32,000 nucleotides of DNA from NCBI RefSeq assembly GCF_000015945.1, contig NC_009033.1, forward strand, positions 600,001 to 632,000, in the 5' to 3' direction. This DNA comes from Staphylothermus marinus F1. GTDB lineage: Archaea > Thermoproteota > Thermoprotei_A > Sulfolobales > Desulfurococcaceae. Shown piece after piece: positions 2,741 through 27,920 of this stretch (positions are counted from its first letter, which is position 1; each line of letters begins with the position of its first letter). The notes beneath the pieces were generated by a model. The model was not told the origin of the DNA. It saw only the letters and a program-made list of their open reading frames with translations, and ran no database searches. Both the position numbers and the translations under genes were made by a program.

Positions 2741-3023
2741 CTTCCAATTCTTTCTATGTTGTTACTTAGCTGCAAGCTTCTTAGCATTGCTGGGACAGGT
2801 CTGCTTTCAATTCTTTCTGTGTTGTTACATCGCAGGGGCAGTTCTAGGAACCATTGTCCCCGGTATCCTTTCAATTCTTTCTGTGTTGCTACATATGAGA
2901 ATAAGAGCTTCGAGGACATAGATAGAGAAAGAATCTTTCAATTCTTTCTGTGTTGCTACCCCCAAGGAATCGTTAAGTGCTTTCTGGGCAAACACTAGCT
3001 TTCAATTCTTTCTGTGTTGCTAC
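2741..3023 (-). CRISPR. Small CRISPR array: 5 repeats of 25 nt, 4 spacers (38, 39, 42, 39 nt)
   Basis: Repeats lie at 2741-2765, 2804-2828, 2868-2892, 2935-2959 and 2999-3023. The plus-strand consensus is CTTTCAATTCTTTCTGTGTTGCTAC. The three right-hand repeats are identical, 2804-2828 has 1 mismatch and 2741-2765 has 3 mismatches, so degeneration points to the trailer end. The reverse complement GTAGCAACACAGAAAGAATTGAAAG ends in ATTGAAAG, the canonical 8-nt crRNA 5' handle. The array is therefore transcribed on the minus strand with its leader to the right. Confidence 0.93.
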
Positions 3024-12892: not shown

Positions 12893-12987
12893 CCGAGGGA
12901 TTCGTCACCTATTCAGACGATGCGGGCGACACCCGACGGGCTGTCATCGGGTCATATATACTTATATGGTTAATTAGGATTTATTGT

Positions 12988-13893
12988 TTATTTTCTATGC
13001 GCATATCCTATGATATCGGATATTCTCGTAAATCCTTTCTCTTCCATATACTTCTTGATACCATCAAGTATATTGTTTACTATATTGTATCCAACCATGT
13101 AGAATCCTGTACCTATTTGAATAGCTTTTGCACCAGCAAGTAGTAGTTCAACACTTGTTTTCCAATCAATTACTCCGCCAACACCTATTATTTCAGCTCC
13201 AAGCTCTTCATATACCTTATAAACACTATACACTGCTACAGGATGTATTGCTGGACCCGATAATCCTCCGAATCCATGTGTTAGAACAGGTTTACCAACA
13301 TATACATCAATAAACATACCGGGCAAAGTATTTATTAAAACAACTGCGTCAACCCCATTATTCAATAGTATTTCTGATTCCCTAATAATTCTCCTACTAA
13401 AACCCAGCTTACCCCATACAGGAATATTTGAAACACTAGATACATTTAAAGCAACATGTTTTAAAACTTCATCCGTAGCAACTGTGTCAACACCGAAACC
13501 TGGAGTGTGTGGACAACTAAGATTAAGCTCTAAAGCCTCTGGTCTAGCATCCAGTGCTTTCTCAGCTAATATTTGGAACTCTCTTGGATCCCGTCCACCA
13601 ATACTCACAATTGCAGGTAATCCGTATTTATGAATTTCTTCAACGAGAACATTTACTGCATCAATACCTGGATTAGCAAGTCCAACAGCATTCAGTAATC
13701 CATAATCTAGTGGAATAGTTATTGGGGGTAAGTATCCTTCTCTAGGCTTAAGTGTAAGAGTTTTTGTCACAATACCTGCTACACCAGTTTTTGCAAGAAT
13801 CCCTACACCATTAATACTTGATGCTAAAATACCACTAGCATTCATTATTGGATGTTTGAAAACTATACCTGTAACCTTAGTTGTTAAATCCAT
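12988..13893 (-). CDS. pyrD: Dihydroorotate dehydrogenase catalytic subunit (class 1B)
   Basis: 301 aa. Motifs are NASGIL, LELNLSCPHTPG (catalytic Cys) and GGV.DW. It lies next to pyrK in the pyr cluster. Confidence 0.9.
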   Translation of the reverse strand: MDLTTKVTGIVFKHPIMNASGILASSINGVGILAKTGVAGIVTKTLTLKPREGYLPPITIPLDYGLLNAVGLANPGIDAVNVLVEEIHKYGLPAIVSIGGRDPREFQILAEKALDARPEALELNLSCPHTPGFGVDTVATDEVLKHVALNVSSVSNIPVWGKLGFSRRIIRESEILLNNGVDAVVLINTLPGMFIDVYVGKPVLTHGFGGLSGPAIHPVAVYSVYKVYEELGAEIIGVGGVIDWKTSVELLLAGAKAIQIGTGFYMVGYNIVNNILDGIKKYMEEKGFTRISDIIGYAHRK

Positions 13894-13896
13894 GAA

Positions 13897-15189
13897 TCAC
13901 CCCTCCAAAACACCGACTGCTCGTCCATGAATCTTTTGAGAAAAACCTTTTCCACGTTGAAAACCTAGTTTCCCACCAATAACTGTAGCTTCAACGCATG
14001 AGTGGAATTCCCAAGAATCATATACGCTGTACTTCGCTTTAGAAACAATGTATCCAGGCTCTATTCTTGTCTTACAGTTAAACCTAATAATTGATAAATT
14101 ACCTCTACAGCCCCTGCATAATATACCATATTTTCTTAAACCAAGAATCCTGGATGGATTATAGCTTAGTAAACGATACATTTGGTCTAAGCTAATGATT
14201 CCTTTAGAAACAAGATCGCCTGCAAAAACACTTATTACTTCAACACCGTTAATACCTGGAGGACATGTTTTTGGACAACACATTTTCTCAACTACACTAT
14301 GTGGTGCATGATCGCTTGCTAAGGCATCAATATGTCCTGATACGAATAAATCATATAATAGGATCCGGTTTTGGTGATCCCTTATTGGGGGAAGGACTTT
14401 TACATAACAGTTCTTAGCATTAAATCTTTCATAGTCGAACAATAAGTAGTGGGGACAAGTATCAGCTGTGTATCCAAACCTCTTAGCTTCTAGTAGTGAT
14501 AAGTAATTGGTTATATGTGTTATATGAGTTTTAACGTTGAACTTATTGCTTAGAATAGATACATGCCTAATAGATTCTATTTCAACTCTAACATCTCTAA
14601 ACCAATAATACTCGTCTAGACTAGTCTTATACTTGTCTATCATGTATTGTTCTTCGGGATGAACAATTAATATCTTATTTATCCTTCCTAGTTTTTCAAG
14701 CATATAATCTAGTGTTGGATAACCTATTTTTTCAGGATAAAGCTTAACACCCATTACAACAGAGTTTCTAATCATTTGTTCAACATCTGATTTATTCTCC
14801 GGAACATCTATGTATACATAGTAATCTGTATATGAGTTGTTCTCTAAAATCTTCATTCTCTTCTCGAGAATTGAGAAATTATCTATTCTGGGAAGAGTAT
14901 TAGGCATTTCTCCAACAACAGTAATGCCTCCATGTAGTGCTGCTTTGGTGCCAGTCTCTATTGTTTCCTTATATGATTGCTTAAAATCTCTGAGATGTAC
15001 ATGCATATCAATGAATCCCGGGAAAGCTATGACTTCTTTATCTCTTCTATAATCGAGAACTATTTCTCCTGATACGTTTTCCCATGGATCAAGTATTTCC
15101 TTTATAAAACCGTTTTCAATGACTAATGTTGCTTTTCTTAATCCATGCAAATCATATATTAATCCGCGATAAATTATTTGGGGGATCAA
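13897..15189 (-). CDS. pyrC: Dihydroorotase
   Basis: 430 aa. It has the amidohydrolase metal ligands DMHVHLRD and ASDHAPH. The TTG start overlaps the pyrK stop (TTGA). Confidence 0.85.
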   Translation of the reverse strand: MIPQIIYRGLIYDLHGLRKATLVIENGFIKEILDPWENVSGEIVLDYRRDKEVIAFPGFIDMHVHLRDFKQSYKETIETGTKAALHGGITVVGEMPNTLPRIDNFSILEKRMKILENNSYTDYYVYIDVPENKSDVEQMIRNSVVMGVKLYPEKIGYPTLDYMLEKLGRINKILIVHPEEQYMIDKYKTSLDEYYWFRDVRVEIESIRHVSILSNKFNVKTHITHITNYLSLLEAKRFGYTADTCPHYLLFDYERFNAKNCYVKVLPPIRDHQNRILLYDLFVSGHIDALASDHAPHSVVEKMCCPKTCPPGINGVEVISVFAGDLVSKGIISLDQMYRLLSYNPSRILGLRKYGILCRGCRGNLSIIRFNCKTRIEPGYIVSKAKYSVYDSWEFHSCVEATVIGGKLGFQRGKGFSQKIHGRAVGVLEG

Positions 15190-15971
15190 CTATAAACCCT
15201 CAGGGTATCCTCATAGTTGAATAGAGGACCGTCAATACAGAGAAGTCTGCCGAGGTTTCTTAATGTGCATTTACCACATAAACCTAAGCCACACTTAATT
15301 GTTTCTTCAAGTATAAAGTAATGATTAACATTATTATTCACTTTGTTAAGCATATTACCGATCATTTCTGGCGGCCCTGATACTATGATTGCATCGTATT
15401 CTCCTAAATTAATCTTTGTATATGCATCTAAGATTGTTCCTTGATAATCGCATTCTCCGAAACATGCAGTATATGGTTTTCCACCTAGTTTACTTATGAG
15501 TCTCGGTGCATCTCCGATTTCTTCTCTTCTCCAACACCCAAATAATACATGGCATTTGTCAGGGGTGCAACCTAGATATTTTAAATAGTATAGTATAGGG
15601 GCTAAACCGCTTCCTCCAGCTACGAATAAGAACTTGTTGCCATGTGGAATATGTTCTCTGCCTAAGAAACCATACATACCTAGATAGCTTCCACAACTCA
15701 TAGATACTAGGCGCCTAGTAGTTGGTCCCACTGGTTTGACAAGTATTGATAAAGTATTGTCTTCACTATTAAAACCTGCCACACTCATTGGGATAGCTTC
15801 ATATCCTGGAACCCATAACATAATGAACTGTGGTGGTTTTGGCTCAGTAATTATGTTATCCAGTATTTTAAAATCTAAAAGGTATAGGTTTAATGATAAC
15901 TTGTTATTATTTATTAATTTTATACTGTAGTATTTAATGCTAGGACTCAATATAGTCTTCAATCTCGTCAC
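15186..15971 (-). CDS. pyrK: Dihydroorotate dehydrogenase electron-transfer subunit (FAD / 2Fe-2S)
   Basis: 261 aa with a ferredoxin-reductase-like fold (GGSGLAP) and the C-terminal cluster motif CGLGLCGKC....C.DGP. The GTG start at 15971 overlaps the pyrI 3' end by 32 nt; an alternative TTG lies at 15949. Confidence 0.85.
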   Translation of the reverse strand: MTRLKTILSPSIKYYSIKLINNNKLSLNLYLLDFKILDNIITEPKPPQFIMLWVPGYEAIPMSVAGFNSEDNTLSILVKPVGPTTRRLVSMSCGSYLGMYGFLGREHIPHGNKFLFVAGGSGLAPILYYLKYLGCTPDKCHVLFGCWRREEIGDAPRLISKLGGKPYTACFGECDYQGTILDAYTKINLGEYDAIIVSGPPEMIGNMLNKVNNNVNHYFILEETIKCGLGLCGKCTLRNLGRLLCIDGPLFNYEDTLRVYS

Positions 15972-16434
15972 CTTTCAAAACATATCCACAATACTGGCAC
16001 TCCAACATAATTGGATTAGTTGATTTTAGCTTAAACAATGACTTAATAGGCTCGTTTTTCTTCCTAGATATACATGTTGGGTTCGGGCACTTGATTAAGC
16101 CCTTAACTATGCTTGGAGGTTCAACTCTTTGCTTCTCCACAACCTTGTATTCTTTGATAACATTTATTGTAGCAGTTGGCGCTATTAATGCTATGAGACT
16201 TAATTCTTTCATTGATAAGAATTTTTCTTCGATTTTAACAATGTCTTTTCTACCAAGCTTTCTGCTTTCAACATTCATTACTAAAGCTACACGTAATCCT
16301 TCACTACCAGTTATTCCAAGCACTCTTAAAACCTTCAATGCTTTACCAGCAGGTATATGATCTATAACTATTCCATTCCTAATTTTCGAGACTATTAGCT
16401 TATTTGGATATTTTGATAGATTAGTGGGGTTCAC
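15940..16434 (-). CDS. pyrI: Aspartate carbamoyltransferase regulatory chain
   Basis: 164 aa. It has IRNGIVIDHIPAG and the C-terminal zinc motif CPNPTC...C.YC. The GTG start is preceded by GGTGAGGTG. Confidence 0.9.
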   Translation of the reverse strand: MNPTNLSKYPNKLIVSKIRNGIVIDHIPAGKALKVLRVLGITGSEGLRVALVMNVESRKLGRKDIVKIEEKFLSMKELSLIALIAPTATINVIKEYKVVEKQRVEPPSIVKGLIKCPNPTCISRKKNEPIKSLFKLKSTNPIMLECQYCGYVLKGDEIEDYIES

Positions 16435-16613
16435 TCCATAAACACCTCACCAATGTAATGATTAATAGGATGTGGATGAAGAGCTCTGCGTGGTAGGTGC
16501 GGAGCCCCGATAACCCCCTCAATGAAGAAATGAAAACCCGACCCAAGAGGGGGAAGCCCCTGCAAATACTCATAACATCCAAAATAACCAAAAAATAAAG
16601 CACGAGTAACCAC
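16427..16613 (-). repeat. GC-rich repeated element, copy A, filling the pyrB-pyrI spacer (sense to the operon)
   Basis: The reverse complement of 16490-16563 matches 27410-27483 at 64/74 positions by hand alignment. Flanking similarity continues with indels out to 16427 and 16613. The core is about 60% GC against about 35% background. It contains the helix CCCCCUC/GAGGGGG (plus-strand coordinates 16547-16553 and 16514-16520). Confidence 0.8.
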
Positions 16614-16633
16614 AACAAGTTTCTTCTCCATAC

Positions 16634-17569
16634 TTAACCCCTCCAAACACCAAGTACTAGGGATAATAGAGCCATTCTCAACGGAACACCTAGCTTGGCT
16701 TGGTAGAAATATGCTGCATAAGGAGTTTCATCAACTCTATAATCAATTTCATCTATTTTTGGTAGGGGATGAAGTATTCTAAACTCTTTCTTAACATTTC
16801 TCAATGTATCAATGCTTATCCTGTATAGGTTCTTAACTCGCTCATACTCTATTGGATCAGGGTATCTCTCCTTCTGGATTCTCGTAACATATAGTACATC
16901 TAGTTCATCGATAACATCTTGTAGACTCGTTGTTTCTTCAAACGATAATCCTAGCTCAGCTATTTTATTTCTAACTTCTTCTCTCAATCTAAGTATTCCA
17001 GGAGATATCAAGTATACTTTTCTAGGTTTAAACCTTGTTAAGCCATATAAGAAGCTTGTTATTGTTCTAGCATATTTTAGATCTCCTAGAATACCTATTG
17101 TTAACCCATCTATTCCTCCAAATATTTTATACATGGTATATAAATCGATCATTGCTTGAGTCGGGTGTTCATGTCTTCCATCTCCTCCATTGATTACGGG
17201 GTTTTCCGCTAACTCTGCAGCATACCTTGCTGTTCCTTCATATTTTGACCTAATAACTATTAGATCGCTGTATGAATCAAGCATTCTAATAGTGTCTGCG
17301 AAGTTCTCGCCTTTTGCTAGACTAGTAGCTGTTTCACTAGTGAATACAAGTGTTTTCCCGCCCAATCTATATGTTGCTGATTGAAAACTATACATTGTCC
17401 TAGTGCTTGGTTCGAGGAATGCTAATGCAACAATATATCCGTCTAGCAGGTGTAGCTTCTTTTTCTCAGACAAATATTTTTCCATCTGATCAGCTACTAA
17501 GAAGAGATATTCTAGGTTTTCACGGCTATAATCCAGTATGCTTAGTACGTCTCCTCTGGGAAAACCCAT
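16634..17569 (-). CDS. pyrB: Aspartate carbamoyltransferase catalytic chain
   Basis: 311 aa with the STRT, HPTQ and HPLP motifs. AT-rich TATA-like sequences lie in the 39-bp gap upstream (17570-17608). Confidence 0.92.
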   Translation of the reverse strand: MGFPRGDVLSILDYSRENLEYLFLVADQMEKYLSEKKKLHLLDGYIVALAFLEPSTRTMYSFQSATYRLGGKTLVFTSETATSLAKGENFADTIRMLDSYSDLIVIRSKYEGTARYAAELAENPVINGGDGRHEHPTQAMIDLYTMYKIFGGIDGLTIGILGDLKYARTITSFLYGLTRFKPRKVYLISPGILRLREEVRNKIAELGLSFEETTSLQDVIDELDVLYVTRIQKERYPDPIEYERVKNLYRISIDTLRNVKKEFRILHPLPKIDEIDYRVDETPYAAYFYQAKLGVPLRMALLSLVLGVWRG

Positions 17570-17608
17570 GTGCCCGGCACAATTTATAGTAATAACAAAA
17601 ATATAAGT

Positions 17609-18220
17609 TTAACTATGTTTTTCTCTGTTCAAGTAATTCTTGATCAAATAATATGTTTGTTCATCAATTAGTCTATGCTTCACTAATACATTAATTATAA
17701 ACCATATATTCATGAGAGAAATTAATTCAACACCTAGCCGTTTAAGCCTCTCCCTCGCTCCCTCCTCTCTATCTACAAAAACAAATGCTTTCTCAACAAT
17801 ACCTCCCATACTTCTTACTGCATTAACTGCATGTTCCAAACTACCACCAGTTGTTGCTACATCATCAACTACCAGAACATTTCTATCAGCAACTATTCCC
17901 TCGACAAGTCTCTTAGTACCGTGTTGCTTAGGTTTCTTCCTCACATATCCAACGGGCTTATGTGTTTTGCACGCTATGAATGATGCATGAATTATTCCAG
18001 CAGACTCTATTCCTACCACTATATCAAAGTTTAATTTTTCCAGCTTAGATAAGGAAATATCAATTATTTTAGAATATATATCGTAGTAGCTTGGCAGAAT
18101 TCTTAAATCAATATAGTAAGGGCTTATTTTTCCACTCGTCAACCTGTATTCGCCGATCTTAAAAAGTTTATTTCTATAGAGTTCTAAAACTATTTCCTCT
18201 AGAACAGATTCACTGTTCAT
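17609..18220 (-). CDS. pyrE: Orotate phosphoribosyltransferase
   Basis: 203 aa with the PRPP-binding motif VLVVDDVATTGGS. It overlaps the pyrF stop by 4 nt. Confidence 0.88.
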   Translation of the reverse strand: MNSESVLEEIVLELYRNKLFKIGEYRLTSGKISPYYIDLRILPSYYDIYSKIIDISLSKLEKLNFDIVVGIESAGIIHASFIACKTHKPVGYVRKKPKQHGTKRLVEGIVADRNVLVVDDVATTGGSLEHAVNAVRSMGGIVEKAFVFVDREEGARERLKRLGVELISLMNIWFIINVLVKHRLIDEQTYYLIKNYLNREKHS

Positions 18221-18924
18221 TTATGATCAACCCCTATAATTTCTCTATGGATCTTGTTAATTTCCTCAATAATCTTGATAGGATTACTTGATAATGTAAT
18301 CATTCTACCAATTATTTCATAATCAGCTCCAACACGAATAGCTGTGCCTGGCGCGGCTCCTTGAACACCTATTCCTGGAGAAAATATTTTGGCTTGAATA
18401 TTATTTTCGAATAGAAACTTTTTAATCTCAATAATTCTATCCGGCCTTGTAGCTGGTGCGACAAGACCCCATGGTTTAAGTTTTTTAATAATTTCTAGTA
18501 TGTTAAGTAAACACTTATCTATGATATCTAGTGATCCCTTATGGCTCATAGATGCTACAAGTACTAATTTAGAATTTTGTTTTGATAGAAAATCTTTTAA
18601 CTCAAATAATCCTCCCTCTAATCCTATGAATGCATGTGCAATATATGTATTGTATCCCATCTCGACTAGTTGATTCACTGTATTAATCATTATTGGTGCT
18701 ATATCAGCTAGCTTGAAATCTATGATCCAGTAATGCTTGTTATCGATTAGTTTGGATATTTCCATAAAACCTTCCAAACCATATCTTATAAGGAATGGTA
18801 GGCCAAACTTGTATCCAGCAACTATGTTTTTAGTTGCATCTATGAAATCAATGAACCAGTTTAGAGGCTTATTTGTCACGTCTAGAGCTACTATTATCCT
18901 ACTATTCAATGAGTTAATCCCCAA
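18217..18924 (-). CDS. pyrF: Orotidine-5'-phosphate decarboxylase
   Basis: 235 aa with the IVALDV and DFKLADI motifs. The TTG start overlaps the pyrG 3' end. Confidence 0.85.
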   Translation of the reverse strand: MGINSLNSRIIVALDVTNKPLNWFIDFIDATKNIVAGYKFGLPFLIRYGLEGFMEISKLIDNKHYWIIDFKLADIAPIMINTVNQLVEMGYNTYIAHAFIGLEGGLFELKDFLSKQNSKLVLVASMSHKGSLDIIDKCLLNILEIIKKLKPWGLVAPATRPDRIIEIKKFLFENNIQAKIFSPGIGVQGAAPGTAIRVGADYEIIGRMITLSSNPIKIIEEINKIHREIIGVDHK

Positions 18925-20509
18925 CTATTTTCTTTATGAAGTAATAATATATGGGAGCTGGTGTTAGTGGTCTGCTTTTGAATTCTGGATGTGGTTGGGA
19001 CCCGAAGTATAATGTTCTATATTTTGGTAATTCGATGAATTCAGGGTATTTCTCGGGGCTCCAACCACTTATTTTTAAACCGGCGTTTTCAAGCTTATCA
19101 ATGTATTTTGGGTTAACCTCGTATCTATGCCTATGTCTTTCATAAACTATTTCTCTACGATAAATTTGCCATGCAATAGTGTTTTTCTTGATATGTATAG
19201 GGTGTGCTCCAAGCCTCATTGTTCCTCCTAGATGTTTGACATTGTACTGACTTGGCAATAAATCGATTACTGGGTATGGAGTGTTCGGGTCTATTTCTGT
19301 GCTATGCGCTCTCTCTAATCCTACAACGTTTCTAGCGTATTCGACAACCATTAATTGCATTCCAAAACATATTCCCAGCAATGGTTTATTGTTTTCTCGC
19401 AGGAAACGTATAGCTTTGATTTTGCCTTCTGCCCCTCTCTTACCGAATCCTGGCAAGATAACTGCTCCATCATACTCTAATAGTTTTTCTAGAGATAACT
19501 TTCCGTTCTCAATATCTGTTGCTTCAAACCATCCTAGTTCTATGCCTGTATTATTCCATGCTCCCGCATGTTTTAATGCTTCAATTATGCTTAGATAGCT
19601 GTCGTGGAGCTTAGTGTATTTACCGATCATAGCGATCCTTGTTTTCCTTTTAGGATTAGTTAGCTTTTCTAAGAAATCATACCATTTAGACAGGTCTGGT
19701 TCACGATACTCTAGCCTCAGCTTCTCGGCGAGGTATTTAGTGTATCCTTGTCTATGTAGAATTATTGGGACACGATAAATAATGTCTACATCTGGATCAC
19801 TATACACTGCTTCTTTCGATAAATTAGAATACAATGCTATTTTAGCTCTATTCTCCTCTTCTAATTCTCTAGGTGAGCGAACAACTACTATGTCCGGCTG
19901 AATACCTATTCTTCTAAGCTCTTGAATACTGTGCTGTACAGGTTTTGTTTTTTGTTCACCAGTAGATATTATTGGTGCTAAAGCTACATGTATTGCTACA
20001 GTATTCCCATAACCCTCCTCTATACGCATCTGCCTAATTGCTTCTAGGAAAGGTAATCCTTCAATATCACCAACAGTTCCACCAATCTCTACGAGAACTA
20101 TGTCTGCATGAGTTTCTTTTGCAACACTCCTTATTCTCTCCTTGATCTCATCCGTTACATGCGGAATTATCTGTACACATTTTCCTAAATATTCTCCTCT
20201 ACGCTCCTTCATGATAACACTATAGTAGATCTGTCCTGTAGTGATATTATGTTTCTTGGTCAGGTTCTGGTTCAGGAACCTCTCATAATGGCCAATATCA
20301 AGATCTGTTTCTCCACCATCTTCTGTAACAAATACTTCTCCATGCATATATGGATTCATTGTTCCAGCATCAACGTTAACATATGGATCAATCTTTATTG
20401 CTGTAACACTATACCCTATTGATTTCAGTAATAAACCTGTAGAAGCTGTTATAACTCCCTTTCCTAAACCAGATAATACTCCACCAGTTATAAATACATA
20501 TTTAGCCAT
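18914..20509 (-). CDS. pyrG: CTP synthase
   Basis: 531 aa. It has the N-terminal [18 protein letters not shown] and a C-terminal glutamine amidotransferase domain with LGICFGMQ and HRHRYE. Confidence 0.95.
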
Positions 20510-21174: not shown

Positions 21175-22557
21175 TTATAGAAGCTTCTTTATTGTCTTAG
21201 CAATTTTTTCAGCAACAACTCTATAATGTATTCTTGACAACCCTAAACCTATTACTTCTAATACTAATACATAGCCGGTAAATGTTAGGACTAATGAGTA
21301 TAATAAATAGGTTTCCTCATCGAAAACCATGAGGGAGAAATGGTCTAGAAGCCTCCAAATATCTATATTAGGCTCCCTTATATGTACGTGTGTCCAAAAA
21401 CTTGTCGGGAACATTATCGGCCATAAACCTATAAGTAAAACATATAGGATGGCTAAGAATCTACAACGATAACATTCTCTGAGTTTTGCAAACAATATTA
21501 TTGAGAAAGCAATTGCTGGAACAAGATATTGATGATTAACTCTCCAATATGTTGTTGTGAAAACTATGTATGCTAGACTAGAATAAACAACTGGATCACG
21601 AAAACCAAGATAAGCCATTAGGATCATGGTTAACAATGTGAGAGCCGGTAACCACCAATACTCCACGAGGAACATCATATTCTTACCTGTGTGTTCATGA
21701 ATATATGTTGCAAGACTAGATAATCCATTAAAACTATAACATATTGGAGGAGTATAACCAGGCTTACTAACAGATAAAGCATTGTTTATGAACATTTCTA
21801 TGCTGCCAGGACAAGCTATTTCAAAAGGTATAAACAACACTAATACTCCAATAATCAAGCTTGAAACGAGCAGGATTTTCCTAAACCATTTATCTCTCTT
21901 CATAATTAGATCATAGATAATAAGTGTTAGAGGGAATAGGAATGTATGTTTAAACGCAACACTCAGCCCCGAAGAAAATGATCCCCAGACTTTTCTCCTT
22001 AATTCATTATTGTTGCGAACATATACTAAATATATGCCTATGAGGAAGAAGAATAAAGGTATTTGATCAAACATTCCATAAATACTTGAAATATATATTG
22101 TCATCGGGTTGAAAGCGTAGAGTGAAGCTAGGATTGCTGAGGATTTCCTATTATAGCCTAAACCCTTAATAATCACATAAATCATTATCGTTGATAAAAT
22201 ATCGAACAATATAAATAATGTTTTAGAAGCAATTATCCAATCCATTGATACATATACGTGGTAACCATCCCGATCCCAGTAATGAATCACAGGCGAGGAA
22301 GCAAGTAGTCTCAAGGGGGCTAGGAACAATACTAGTCCCGGCCCATAAACATATGGCCATGGATAAGGCCAGTTCTCAGTAGATGAATGCTTTGTATCAG
22401 CATATTTATAGAAGCATAAACCATGTCTTAGAAAAGTATCTGCAAAACCTGCAAACTGAGGTATGTCGCTACCAGAAGTATAAGGAGCAACTATTAAGCG
22501 TGGTATAAGCATTAAAACAACTATGATCGATATAATAATTATATCTAGTTTATCCAT
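21175..22557 (-). CDS. Polytopic membrane protein, GT-C-type glycosyltransferase-like (tentative)
   Basis: 460 aa with at least 10 predicted hydrophobic helices. The first loop has an acidic SGSDIPQF motif and the aromatic-rich PYPWPYVYGPG, reminiscent of PMT/ArnT/DUF2029-type enzymes. The functional call is weak. Confidence 0.5.
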   Translation of the reverse strand: MDKLDIIIISIIVVLMLIPRLIVAPYTSGSDIPQFAGFADTFLRHGLCFYKYADTKHSSTENWPYPWPYVYGPGLVLFLAPLRLLASSPVIHYWDRDGYHVYVSMDWIIASKTLFILFDILSTIMIYVIIKGLGYNRKSSAILASLYAFNPMTIYISSIYGMFDQIPLFFFLIGIYLVYVRNNNELRRKVWGSFSSGLSVAFKHTFLFPLTLIIYDLIMKRDKWFRKILLVSSLIIGVLVLFIPFEIACPGSIEMFINNALSVSKPGYTPPICYSFNGLSSLATYIHEHTGKNMMFLVEYWWLPALTLLTMILMAYLGFRDPVVYSSLAYIVFTTTYWRVNHQYLVPAIAFSIILFAKLRECYRCRFLAILYVLLIGLWPIMFPTSFWTHVHIREPNIDIWRLLDHFSLMVFDEETYLLYSLVLTFTGYVLVLEVIGLGLSRIHYRVVAEKIAKTIKKLL

Positions 22558-22647
22558 ATCACCAATACACCGTCATTATTAATTCAAAACAATAATTACA
22601 CTATGTCGAATATTTAACAATGCTTTACATATGTAGAGTAGAAAAAG

Positions 22648-22722
22648 TGCCGCCGCCGGGATTTGAACCCGGGTCACGGGCTCGAAAGGCCCGCATACTT
22701 GGCCGGGCTATACTACGGCGGC
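22648..22722 (-). tRNA. tRNA-Glu (UUC), no intron
   Basis: The reverse complement folds as GCCGCCG-UA-GUAU-AGCCCGGCCAA-GUAU-G-CGGGC-CUUUCGA-GCCCG-UGAC-CCGGG-UUCAAAU-CCCGG-CGGCGGC-A, 75 nt in total. It is followed by CTTTTTC. Confidence 0.93.
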
Positions 22723-24850: not shown

Positions 24851-24954
24851 GCGGCGGTCGTCTAGCCTGGACTAGGACGCCGGCCTGCCATACGGGTTCG
24901 TATAACCGTGTAGAACGCCGGAGATCCCGGGTTCAAATCCCGGCCGCCGCACCA
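24851..24954 (+). tRNA. tRNA-Gly (GCC) with a 25-nt intron at 37/38 and encoded CCA
   Basis: The cloverleaf is GCGGCGG-UC-GUCU-AGCCUGGACUA-GGAC-G-CCGGC-CUGCCA[intron 24891-24915]C-GCCGG-AGAUC-CCGGG-UUCAAAU-CCCGG-CCGCCGC-A-CCA. The anticodon lies at 24887-24889. Confidence 0.9.
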
Positions 24955-25682: not shown

Positions 25683-25850
25683 CCCGCGGTAGCTCAGCGG
25701 CAGAGCGCCCGGCTGTAGTGGGGAAAATCTGAGCCCCCCACCCGCCAGACATCCCCGGAAACCTGGGGAAATAGAATGATGGCGGGGCGGCGAATAGAGG
25801 GCTCAGCAGATACCGGGTGGTCGGGGGTTCAAGTCCCCCCCGCGGGACCA
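25683..25850 (+). tRNA. tRNA-Tyr (GUA) with a 93-nt intron at 37/38 and encoded CCA
   Basis: The exons are CCCGCGG-UA-GCUC-AGCGGCA-GAGC-G-CCCGG-CUGUAG[intron 25719-25811]A-CCGGG-UGGUC-GGGGG-UUCAAGU-CCCCC-CCGCGGG-A-CCA. The anticodon lies at 25715-25717. The C1-G72 pair is the archaeal/eukaryal tRNA-Tyr identity pair. Confidence 0.9.
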
Positions 25851-25865
25851 TTTAATTTATTATAA

Positions 25866-26891
25866 TCACCTAGTTAGTTTCTCCATTATATCAGCTAATT
25901 CTTTTGTAAAAAGATATGTTTCATATCTCCTTATATAATTGGGAAGGATTTCTGGGACGACATAGAATATATTATTTTCTCTAGCAACTGAAACTATTAT
26001 TTCCTGATAGAACTTTACTGCTTCTTTCATATCCTCTTTTGTGGGAGGAGTATGTTGTATCCCCTTATTATTAACCCAGTGAGCATGTATGCTGTGAATA
26101 TTTCTAGCAATATTTCTTATTCTTACATAATTATATGTTTCAATAATCAAAGTTTTGAGCGCTCTCTTAGTGTTTTTTAATCTTTTCTTTAGCGGACTTA
26201 GCCTCTGCATTGGATCTATTGTAAGACCAATATCTATGTTAAATCCGGCCTCAATTATTTTCTCCGAAAGGATTTTCATGAAGGATAAGAGTTCATTATA
26301 GTTCGAAGCTGCCTGAGGCTTGCGGAGAGAGCCTGAACCTCTATTCTCAATTGTTATTCTTAGACTAAGTCCTGCATTAGCTAAAGAAGGGTATATTCTA
26401 GACATATATTCGGTTATTCCTTCAATAATGGAGCTGATAGGCTTTCTAGATCCCCTATGATCAGAATAGCCTGGATGCATCTCTATTTCAACAACTTTAA
26501 GCTTAGGGCAGAGATTTACAGCTAGATCGATTAATTGTTTAGTATATTTAACATAGTTATCTATGAACTCTGTGTCAAACCATATGGGAGCCATATATTC
26601 AGTGTGTAGGGTAGCAACAACTATTTGTTCTCCATATGATTTGAAAAAATCCATATTAGTAATTATTTGTTTAGCTAGATTAGAATAATCACATATAATT
26701 GATTTCCTCCGAGGTATGGGTACGCATCGTGTTGCAAAGGGTAGGAAAGCATGCCCGTATATTGTAAGTAGATGCTCAGATAATGATCTCAATTCTTCTA
26801 AGGACTTTATTCTAGCTCCTATAAGGAACCATCGAGGAATAGAAATAGAGGCTTTCTTCAAATACTTCTTTACCTCAACTAAGTTTTCCAT
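25866..26891 (-). CDS. Hypothetical protein, possibly a xylose-isomerase-like TIM barrel (endonuclease IV/UvdE-like metal sites)
   Basis: The ORF is 25866..26930 (TTG); I prefer the ATG at 26891 (MENLVEVKKY). The spaced motifs EMHPGYS, ITIENRG, LTIDP and SIHAHW resemble the H/E/D/H metal ligands of AP_endonuc_2-type barrels. This rests on pattern recognition only. Confidence 0.35.
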   Translation of the reverse strand: MENLVEVKKYLKKASISIPRWFLIGARIKSLEELRSLSEHLLTIYGHAFLPFATRCVPIPRRKSIICDYSNLAKQIITNMDFFKSYGEQIVVATLHTEYMAPIWFDTEFIDNYVKYTKQLIDLAVNLCPKLKVVEIEMHPGYSDHRGSRKPISSIIEGITEYMSRIYPSLANAGLSLRITIENRGSGSLRKPQAASNYNELLSFMKILSEKIIEAGFNIDIGLTIDPMQRLSPLKKRLKNTKRALKTLIIETYNYVRIRNIARNIHSIHAHWVNNKGIQHTPPTKEDMKEAVKFYQEIIVSVARENNIFYVVPEILPNYIRRYETYLFTKELADIMEKLTR

Positions 26892-27000
26892 TAATAAATA
26901 ATAAAGAGTTGTAGTTATATGTTTTAACAATTTTTAATTCGTGTATGAATGTGATCTATGATTAAAGATAATTGTATGAATATCTTTTATTGTATCCTGA

Positions 27001-27213: not shown

Positions 27214-27371
27214 TATGTTTGAATCAGTTGATTAGCTAATATAAAATATGTTAACTTAACTTGTTAAATTGGGGAAAATTTTCGAGGCTTCTAAGATACT
27301 TAGCTAATTTAACATCCACTTCGTACAAGTATTTATCGAAGTAAGTATTAAAGATCATTAGTAAGTTTCCC

Positions 27372-27385
27372 AGTAAGTTTATATA
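27372..27385 (+). promoter_or_regulatory. BRE/TATA-like promoter upstream of repeated element copy B
   Basis: The sequence is AGTAAGTTTATATA. An 8-bp TATA at 27378-27385 predicts a TSS near G27410, which is where the conserved core of the element begins. Confidence 0.4.
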
Positions 27386-27553
27386 GTGGTTGCCCATGCT
27401 TTATTGTTTGCACGGGCTTCCCCCTCTTGGGTTGGGGCTTCATCCCTTCATTGAGGGGGCTATCGGGGCTCCACACAGACCACTTTTGAGCCCTTCATCC
27501 GCATTTCCCAAATCATTAACCATTATATTAGTGAGGGTTTATAAAGCGAACCC
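27386..27553 (+). ncRNA. GC-rich repeated element, copy B: candidate stand-alone structured small RNA (family not recognised)
   Basis: It is homologous to the pyrB-pyrI spacer. The core 27410-27483 is about 64% GC and 64/74 identical to copy A. Potential helices are 27420-27426/27453-27459 and 27466-27471/27488-27493. Short T-tracts lie downstream at 27574-27577 and 27583-27586. The repeat itself is certain; RNA status is inferred. Confidence 0.45.
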
Positions 27554-27920
27554 AATAATTAAAACAATCATGGTTTTCACAATTTTCCAAAACAACCATG
27601 GTATAGTATCCAAATAAGCAAATAGTCTCTAATGCCGTATAGAAATATATCATTGCCTCTTTTCTTAACATCGTTATACAAGTTTTCAACACAATTGTTT
27701 GATTTATATTCATCGACGATTTCTTGTTCTAATAGTAGCTTCTATTTTTCTAGGTCAATATTACGTATTATATCAACTATATTATCAACCACAAGATCAT
27801 ATAGAGACATTTTCATCAACCACATAGATTAGATATTTTCATTTAATCAAAAAGTTTTCTTTAAATCTAAACTAGTATTAATTAAGCTCGATAAGATTAG
27901 ATATAGTTGAGGGGAAATCA

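Follow-up and report, generated by a model that had tools for sequence, protein, structure and literature searches.

Several described systems come close to the sequence studied here. The genome paper of Staphylothermus marinus F1 (Anderson et al. 2009, BMC Genomics 10:145, PMC2678158) reported 14 copies of a miniature inverted-repeat transposable element (MITE) of ~260 nucleotides (nt), together with five elements of the "IS607 family", four of which have a single open reading frame (ORF). The MITE was found to resemble the DNA upstream of those transposase ORFs, and two ORFs, Smar_0733 and Smar_0327/0328, were listed as disrupted; pyrI is unmentioned. In TnpB elements, the guide RNA corresponds to the tnpB 3' terminus and to the right end of the element, with its last ~16 nt derived from the flank (PMC8612924). 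The gene-less PATE elements of Geobacillus "often encode" omega RNAs (Meers et al. 2023, PMC10055086). Here we analyse 32,000 nt of the S. marinus F1 genome (NC_009033.1, positions 600,001 to 632,000, forward strand; hereafter the window), in which a GC-rich sequence separates the genes pyrB and pyrI of a pyr cluster. Analysis of the sequence suggests that this DNA is very probably a gene-less, MITE- or PATE-like copy of a tnpB-type insertion sequence (IS200/IS605/IS607 group) which was inserted in pyrI, and that the gene is now read anew from inside it. The element amounts to a common kind of mobile-element scar, and its family has very likely been described from this genome before. What is new is modest, namely the predicted origin of its right half from the tnpB 3' end as a guide-RNA template, and the presence of one copy inside pyrI, which appears to be restarted from within the element.

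Two copies of the element and the empty site in pyrI

Comparison of the window with itself revealed two copies in opposite orientation, copy A between pyrB and pyrI and the better preserved copy B in an intergenic region (Table 1). The two share a 19-mer and a 26-mer (chance expectation 0) and a 77-nt core of 87% identity, in which the GC content is ~45-55% as compared to ~30-35% in the flanks. By BLASTN they are 79% identical over 155 nt (E value 5e-30). An initial annotation of this DNA had described a 199-bp pyrB/pyrI spacer holding the same GC-rich element as 27386-27553, and both statements hold, since the ORF coordinates give 199 nt and the second site is an inverted copy. The repeat and the GC-rich spacer of that annotation were therefore confirmed, whereas its limits, ATG site, junctions and orientation had to be corrected. 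Similarity to copy B had been followed through 16427-16432; it is present there but goes on to 16393, 42 nt inside the annotated pyrI ORF. At the other end a 20-nt block of similarity between the copies extends to 16613, and although 16435-16633 had been taken as a non-pyr copy of the element, its last part (16614-16633) does not belong to it.

Read in the tnpB orientation (see below), both copies start with TATTWGCTTATTTGGATA directly after GAGAC and end with AACCAC, and their flanks are unrelated. The left part is ~75 nt long in copy A and ~130 nt in copy B. With total lengths of 221 and 239 nt, the copies are too short for a transposase or TnpB gene. Only a single end-to-end inverted repeat is present, of 13 nt at 77%.

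Deletion of copy A (16393-16613, 221 nt) from the sequence joins its flanks in frame as TAA-GT-ATG GAG AAG AAA CTT GTT/GTC TCG AAA ATT AGG AAT GGA... The rebuilt pyrI reads MEKKLVVSKIRNG... / MEKKLVVSKIRNGIVIDH... and starts 2 nt past the pyrB stop codon. This 2-nt gap, with GGAGGGG upstream, is like the other internal junctions of the cluster. The restored PyrI aligns to PyrI of Sulfolobus acidocaldarius (1PG5_B) from residue 3 (E value 5.7e-51) and scores 174.0 bits against TIGR00240, as compared to 173.4 bits for the present protein. Since excision rebuilds an in-frame pyrI, the element appears to have been inserted between pyrI codons 6 and 7. In the order of events that we propose, it would have landed 3' of GAGAC, between these two codons, in a gene that formerly began 2 nt after the pyrB stop.

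The GAGAC next to the left end of both copies is best regarded as target sequence, because excising it along with the element would break the pyrI frame and because it encodes the V-S of the conserved ...VSKI. The position of the junction can slide by 2 nt since AC is present at both junctions. No target duplication is seen at copies A and B; instead, a conserved target motif stands next to sharp common boundaries and the empty site can be reconstructed. GAGAC is a candidate transposon-adjacent motif.

Part of the shared sequence lies within the pyrI ORF, as a 26-nt block at 16385-16410 is 92% identical to 27607-27632. As this block matches pyrI codons 9-17, copy B could in principle be a segmental duplicate of the pyrB-pyrI junction which involved no independent transposition. 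However, what is shared is GAGAC plus 18 nt at the left end of the element. Similarity ends there and at AACCAC, and neither pyrB nor the deeper part of pyrI contributes anything to it. Moreover, Smar_0453 and Smar_0580 (described below) begin with the same left end in unrelated contexts. We regard a segmental duplication as extremely improbable.

Two observations concern the surroundings of copy B. A segment at 27277-27310, ~75 nt past its right end, is 71% identical in opposite orientation to the GAGAC and left end of copy A; it could be what remains of a third copy, or the match may be due to chance. In silico removal of copy B opens an 83-codon frame on the minus strand (27254-27385 plus 27625-27741) which has no clear start codon and no Pfam match; as this frame runs across the junction, a small ORF may have been interrupted by copy B.

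Homology of the right half to the 3' end of tnpB

A metagenome scan with the shared 19-mer returned four matches. Two of them are identical hot-spring contigs (L006 and L009), and the other two (L007 and L008) are chance matches within an unrelated gene. A scan of viral contigs gave chance matches in high-GC bacteria only. In L009, the identical 19-mer is located at the 3' end of an ORF of 412 amino acids (aa), on the opposite strand. The encoded protein is a TnpB, with the Pfam domain Cas12f1-like_TNB (1.6e-15) as well as OrfB_IS605 and RuvC_1, and a score of 119 bits (cutoff 100) against the NCBIfam model guided_TnpB. When this protein was compared to the window by tblastn, only its last ~35 residues matched and only at the two copies, at 27494-27402 in copy B (E value 7e-8) and at 16467-16580 in copy A (E value 9e-5). 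The nucleotide identity to the 3' end of the L009 tnpB is 89% over 71 nt for copy B and 81% over 86 nt for copy A, and the BLASTN E values against L009 are 3e-16 (copy A) and 2e-18. All three sequences end with (G)YAACCAC, after which the similarity stops; in L009, GGGCAACCAC is present downstream of tnpB. Extension of the tnpB relic beyond ~35 codons was not significant.

A full-length, tnpB-only element is present in L009 (tentatively 211-1586) and in L006. At the 3' end its nucleotides are 81-89% identical to the S. marinus element, with the proteins only ~50% identical there. The higher identity at the nucleotide level fits a constraint on the RNA of a guide scaffold.

Since TnpB elements draw their guide RNAs from the 3' end of tnpB onward to the right end, homology and position predict that the right half is the template of an omega or right-end element RNA (reRNA) scaffold. 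In copy A it lies antisense to the pyr genes. The sense orientation which had earlier been given to the element is correct relative to the plus strand of copy B, but its coding and guide-RNA orientation is antisense to pyr.

RNA structure and the possibility of a regulatory element

Alignment of copies A and B with L009 suggests three stems and one inner hairpin common to the three sequences. On the tnpB strand, 24 of the 25 proposed pairs can form in copy B and in L009 and 19 in copy A, in agreement with the previous remark that copy A pairs less well than copy B. In stem 1 of this three-sequence alignment there is one compensatory change, from C-G to G-C. Folds of the single sequences on either strand told little; as compared to shuffled ones, they gave z = -0.13 for copy A and z of about -2 for copy B. 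No Rfam match to the element was obtained at the gathering score in the window, L006 or L009, and permissive Rfam scans of copy A, copy B and L009 yielded chance-level matches only (E values of 2 or more). The idea of a C/D-box or H/ACA guide RNA, raised by a weak match to sR36 (E value 2.4), was dropped, and a kinship to the nearby 96-nt tRNA intron was rejected on reading the sequence.

These results bear on one of three readings put forward in the initial annotation, in which an RNA structure within the operon mRNA would regulate or uncouple the downstream genes pyrI-K-C-D. Such a structured cis-acting RNA could be an attenuator, a riboswitch or a processing site. The GC-rich stems can indeed form on the pyr-sense strand too, with 22 of the 25 proposed pairs in copy A, and an insertion in copy A places the only T6 run of the cluster on that strand. 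However, Rfam offers no match at the gathering or the permissive threshold, shuffled sequence folds as well as copy A does, and the sequence recurs in an intergenic site away from the pyr genes and, on the other strand, within tnpB. In addition, removal of the element gives a normal pyrI. What the sequence does to the mRNA, if anything, would follow from the insertion and would not explain its existence, and a regulatory origin thus appears very unlikely.

Further copies and the published MITE family

A search with the 36-aa relic of copy B against 1.84 billion representative proteins identified three short ORFs, among them Smar_0453 and Smar_0580, which both belong to S. marinus F1 and are translations of further copies of the element in unrelated contexts. 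The sequence of Smar_0580 (..VETIRLSRYY..) agrees with the left end GAGAC-TATT, as does that of Smar_0453 (MLIWIL..), and other copies translate LYKP or RFINP, consistent with TTTATAAA in the DNA. Short-read contigs with an identical pyrI, pyrB or amylase gene all end inside a copy, at 16558/16559, at 16574 and at 27599 (the last a Logan contig), as assemblies do at a multi-copy repeat. No contigs were retrieved by exact look-up of Smar_0453, of Smar_0580 or of two genes adjacent to copy B. It is very likely that copies A and B belong to the published ~260-nt MITE family.

Several points weigh against the proposed origin. The identification with the MITE, very likely as it is, rests on organism, size class and copy behaviour and not on coordinates in the published figure, and the genome paper gives the similarity of the MITE for the DNA upstream of the transposase genes only, not for their 3' ends. 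Among the 1.84 billion representative proteins, the 36-aa relic matched no full-length TnpB below an E value of 0.001, only ORFs of other MITE copies, and the parent insertion sequence may have been lost from this genome. The left part of copy B scores 37 against the region upstream in L009, as compared to 32 +/- 5.7 in shuffles, which is not significant. Finally, the proposed pairs form equally on either strand (24/25 in copy B and L009), and because of this tie the strand assignment rests on the homology to tnpB and not on covariation. The repeat, its homology to tnpB, its boundaries and the restored frame of pyrI are direct observations, and with these we maintain the tnpB-derived insertion as a very probable explanation.

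Proposed translation of pyrI from inside the element

The present-day pyrI would be translated from a GTG borne by the element. This GTG is the only usable start upstream of the PyrI domain, because an in-frame TGA is present at 16449-16447. The Shine-Dalgarno-like GGTGAGGTG which had been noticed upstream of the GTG does lie within the element. GAGGTG precedes the new GTG as GGAGGGG precedes the old ATG, and similar motifs are found before pyrD, pyrC and pyrE. The first 14 residues of the present PyrI (VNPTNLSKYPNKLI) are element-encoded, and their ...NKLI stands in the place of ...KKLV by chance.

Upstream of this start, a chimeric 66-codon ORF extends across the element, and its TGA (16433-16431) overlaps the pyrI GTG (16434-16432), as had been observed earlier. 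This ORF was previously given 71 codons, with an ATG 10 nt upstream of the pyrB stop codon. The codon at 16646 is TTG, and the ATG is located at 16631, 2 nt past the stop. Could it be a genuine, conserved gene for a small protein of 66-71 aa between pyrB and pyrI? An open frame of this length was obtained in only 3.4% of composition-preserving shuffles, the ORF starts at a native ATG preceded by a native Shine-Dalgarno motif and overlaps pyrI through GTGA, and it is annotated by NCBI. However, the ORF opens with six codons that are the old start of pyrI and continues as the antisense of a mobile element. It is the sole member of its 90% cluster, Pfam gives no match to it, and in copy B the corresponding frame is broken by indels after ...GAPH. 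We consider a conserved gene highly improbable at this place. The earlier proposal of a real ORF is thus half right, in that the frame is open but comprises 66 codons from the ATG and is a chimera instead of a conserved gene. Among the three readings first offered, it is the mobile relic that the evidence supports.

Since the original Shine-Dalgarno motif and ATG of pyrI are retained, the 66-codon ORF is probably translated. It seems plausible that transcription of the operon reads through the element, and that ribosomes begin at the old pyrI Shine-Dalgarno motif and ATG, cross the element via the 66-codon ORF and stop at its TGA. Restart at the overlapping GTG, aided by the GAGGTG upstream, would then produce a PyrI with 14 element-encoded residues at its N-terminus.

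Possible decay or repair of copy A

Copy B contains a terminal 8-bp stem and an imperfect hairpin in the left part, both read from the sequence. Copy A has lost 38 nt of the left part (47 nt in copy B as compared to 9 nt in copy A), and the hairpin and an in-frame TAG are gone with it. At the position of the new start codon, GCG of copy B is replaced by GTG in copy A, and the counterpart of the TATA-like box is TCCATAAA (16435-16442). To the extent that translations tell, copy A departs at these points from other copies too. The initial annotation had regarded copy A as the decaying copy. The 38-nt loss and the damage to the terminal stem and to the TATA-like box are in favour of this, but the MKTRP variant is present in other copies as well. 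Copy A is probably immobile and a poor template for guide RNA.

The terminal-loop insertion of copy A brings in a T6 run at 16590-16595 (minus strand). No other six-T run occurs on the sense strand over the 7.3 kb of the pyr cluster, where there are four T5 runs besides. Oligo-T tracts are termination signals in archaea, and some transcripts could end at the T6 run, between pyrB and pyrI.

The scar may also have been co-opted. Copy A would then have been remodelled under selection by acquisition of the new GTG, by loss of the stop codon, of the hairpin and of the TATA-like box on the antisense strand, and by a 26-nt insertion that restored the frame, and would now set the PyrI:PyrB ratio through coupling to the leader ORF or through partial termination. 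A B-like copy at this site would end the leader ORF after ~29 codons and would leave a TAG and no start in the pyrI frame, and copy A differs at exactly those points. Furthermore, copy B and the translations of three other copies fit TTTATAAA, where copy A has TCCATAAA. However, the copy may already have carried some of these changes when it was inserted, and PyrI could simply be dispensable. The comparison is with one other DNA copy, the changes may be adaptive repairs or accidents, and we consider co-option rather unlikely.

A wider proposal would combine a role for the family with such a rebuilding. Here the gene-less copies would be stand-alone guide-RNA genes, the intact ones expressed via the TATA-like box in their left part, whose scaffold and flank-derived guide are used by a resident TnpB in trans, and the host would in addition have rebuilt pyrI around copy A, with the leader ORF (and possibly the T6 run) setting PyrI against PyrB. 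In this full form we find the proposal distinctly doubtful.

The pyr cluster and other features of the window

The pyr genes are all on the minus strand and are confirmed by Pfam, and pyrB was left intact by the insertion (Table 1). The other junctions of the cluster had all been described as tight, which does not apply to the pyrE-pyrB gap of 39 nt (17570-17608). This gap contains a T5 run and a TATA-like CTATAAATT box, and on account of the gap and its box pyrB probably heads its own transcription unit. The cluster would thus probably be transcribed as two units, pyrGFE and pyrB-I-K-C-D, and in both the leader would be short or lacking. The start context GGGCAC-ATGG is common to pyrB and pyrG. 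Just 3' of pyrD, at ~12900-12960 on the minus strand, a GC-rich patch of ~55 nt (GACCCGATGACAGCCCGTCGGGTGTCGCCCGCATCGTCTGAATAGG) is located in AT-rich intergenic surroundings. Rfam gives no match to this patch, which may represent a small RNA or the structure of a terminator.

Elsewhere in the window, a short CRISPR array at 2741-3023 with five 25-nt repeats (CTTTCAATTCTTTCTGTGTTGYTAC) matches Rfam CRISPR-DR27. Two tRNA genes identified with Rfam (24851-24951 and 25683-25847) contain introns of 27 nt and 96 nt, the latter GC-rich and unrelated to the element. ARAGORN misses both of these and reports only a tRNA-Glu at 22647-22722. Two ORFs on the minus strand, 21175-22557 (460 aa) and 25866-26930 (354 aa), are without any Pfam match.

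Table 1. Coordinates of the element copies, their parts and the pyr genes in the window
Feature	Position	Strand	Basis and remarks
Element copy A, 221 nt	16393..16613	plus (tnpB/guide-RNA orientation, antisense to the pyr operon)	Limits are where similarity to copy B ends: TATTAGCTTATTTGGATA left, AACCAC right
Element copy B, 239 nt	27386..27624	minus	Intergenic, better preserved; similarity to copy A and L009
GAGAC, directly 5' of copy A left end	16388..16392	plus	Target-derived; minus strand is pyrI codons V15 and S16
GAGAC at copy B left end	27625..27629	minus	Same 5 nt as at copy A
Relic of last ~35 tnpB codons (...SPDNPLNEEMKTRPKRGKPLQILITS)	16467..16580	plus	tblastn with L009 TnpB; internal stop codon
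Putative omega/reRNA scaffold region (tnpB 3' end to right end)	16467..16613	plus	Positional, from L009 homology and PMC8612924; degenerate in copy A
26-nt terminal-loop insertion, copy A only	16571..16596	plus	A/B/L009 alignment; shifts leader frame into an open one; T6 on pyr-sense strand
47-nt left-part segment with imperfect hairpin (CATGGTTGTTTT...AAAACCATG)	27560..27606	minus	Pairing read from sequence; copy A counterpart is 9 nt
TATA-box-like TTTATAAA	27538..27545	minus	~45 nt 5' of tnpB relic; putative promoter
Original pyrI start: 2-nt gap after pyrB TAA, then ATG GAG AAG AAA CTT GTT	16614..16633	minus	Plus strand is the flank that would give the guide part of any copy A guide RNA
Chimeric 66-codon ORF (six old pyrI codons and antisense of element)	16431..16631	minus	NCBI-annotated; TGA overlaps pyrI GTG
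New pyrI start: GGTGAGGTG (GAGGTG 8 nt upstream) and GTG 16434-16432	16432..16451	minus	All element-derived
pyrG	18914-20509	minus	Pfam-confirmed
pyrF	18217-18924	minus	Pfam-confirmed
pyrE	17609-18220	minus	Pfam-confirmed
pyrB	16634-17569	minus	Pfam OTCace_N and OTCace; intact, not altered by insertion
pyrI, present-day, GTG start	15940-16434	minus	Pfam PyrI and PyrI_C; first 14 codons (16393-16434) are element
pyrK	15186-15971	minus	Pfam-confirmed
pyrC	13897-15189	minus	Pfam-confirmed
pyrD	12988-13893	minus	Pfam-confirmed

Comparison with known systems

For the annotation of this locus, the "spacer" is best described as an insertion inside pyrI, the 66-aa hypothetical protein as a chimeric by-product, and 14 residues of PyrI as transposon-derived. 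The locus would be a clean natural case of a gene that survives an intragenic transposon insertion by restart within the element. The general understanding of TnpB elements and of pyrimidine regulation is unchanged.

Translational coupling via GTGA or ATGA overlaps is known from prokaryotic operons. The TGA/GTG overlap and the Shine-Dalgarno-like motif 8 nt upstream found here are similar to it. However, in contrast to the usual coupled genes of an operon, the upstream ORF is an accidental chimera produced by the insertion, and the coupling itself is inferred.

The MITE family of S. marinus (PMC2678158) is alike in organism, in size class and in its multi-copy habit with some truncated copies. 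Like the present element, it is tied to insertion sequences of the orfB/tnpB type and can interrupt genes. The paper predates the knowledge of TnpB guide RNAs; in today's terms, the family described in 2009 can be read as a tnpB-less element with a predicted guide-RNA-encoding end.

ISDra2 (PMC8612924) and SisTnpB1 of Sulfolobus islandicus (bioRxiv 10.1101/2023.03.06.531077) share with our element the layout of the predicted template, from the tnpB 3' end to the right end and with a flank-derived guide, and likewise a motif of 5 nt on the 5' side of the left end. On the other hand, the element has no sequence similarity to their RNAs and matches no Rfam family, copy A is degenerate, and the motif of ISDra2 is TTGAT where the candidate motif here is GAGAC.

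In organization the element resembles the PATE-like derivatives of IS200/IS605 (PMC10055086). Those are elements of Geobacillus, whereas the present one resides in a hyperthermophilic crenarchaeon and its parent family was named IS607 in 2009. Like them, it has no protein gene, retains the transposon ends, has a right part that corresponds to the tnpB 3' end and the putative scaffold, and would need a transposase and TnpB supplied in trans.

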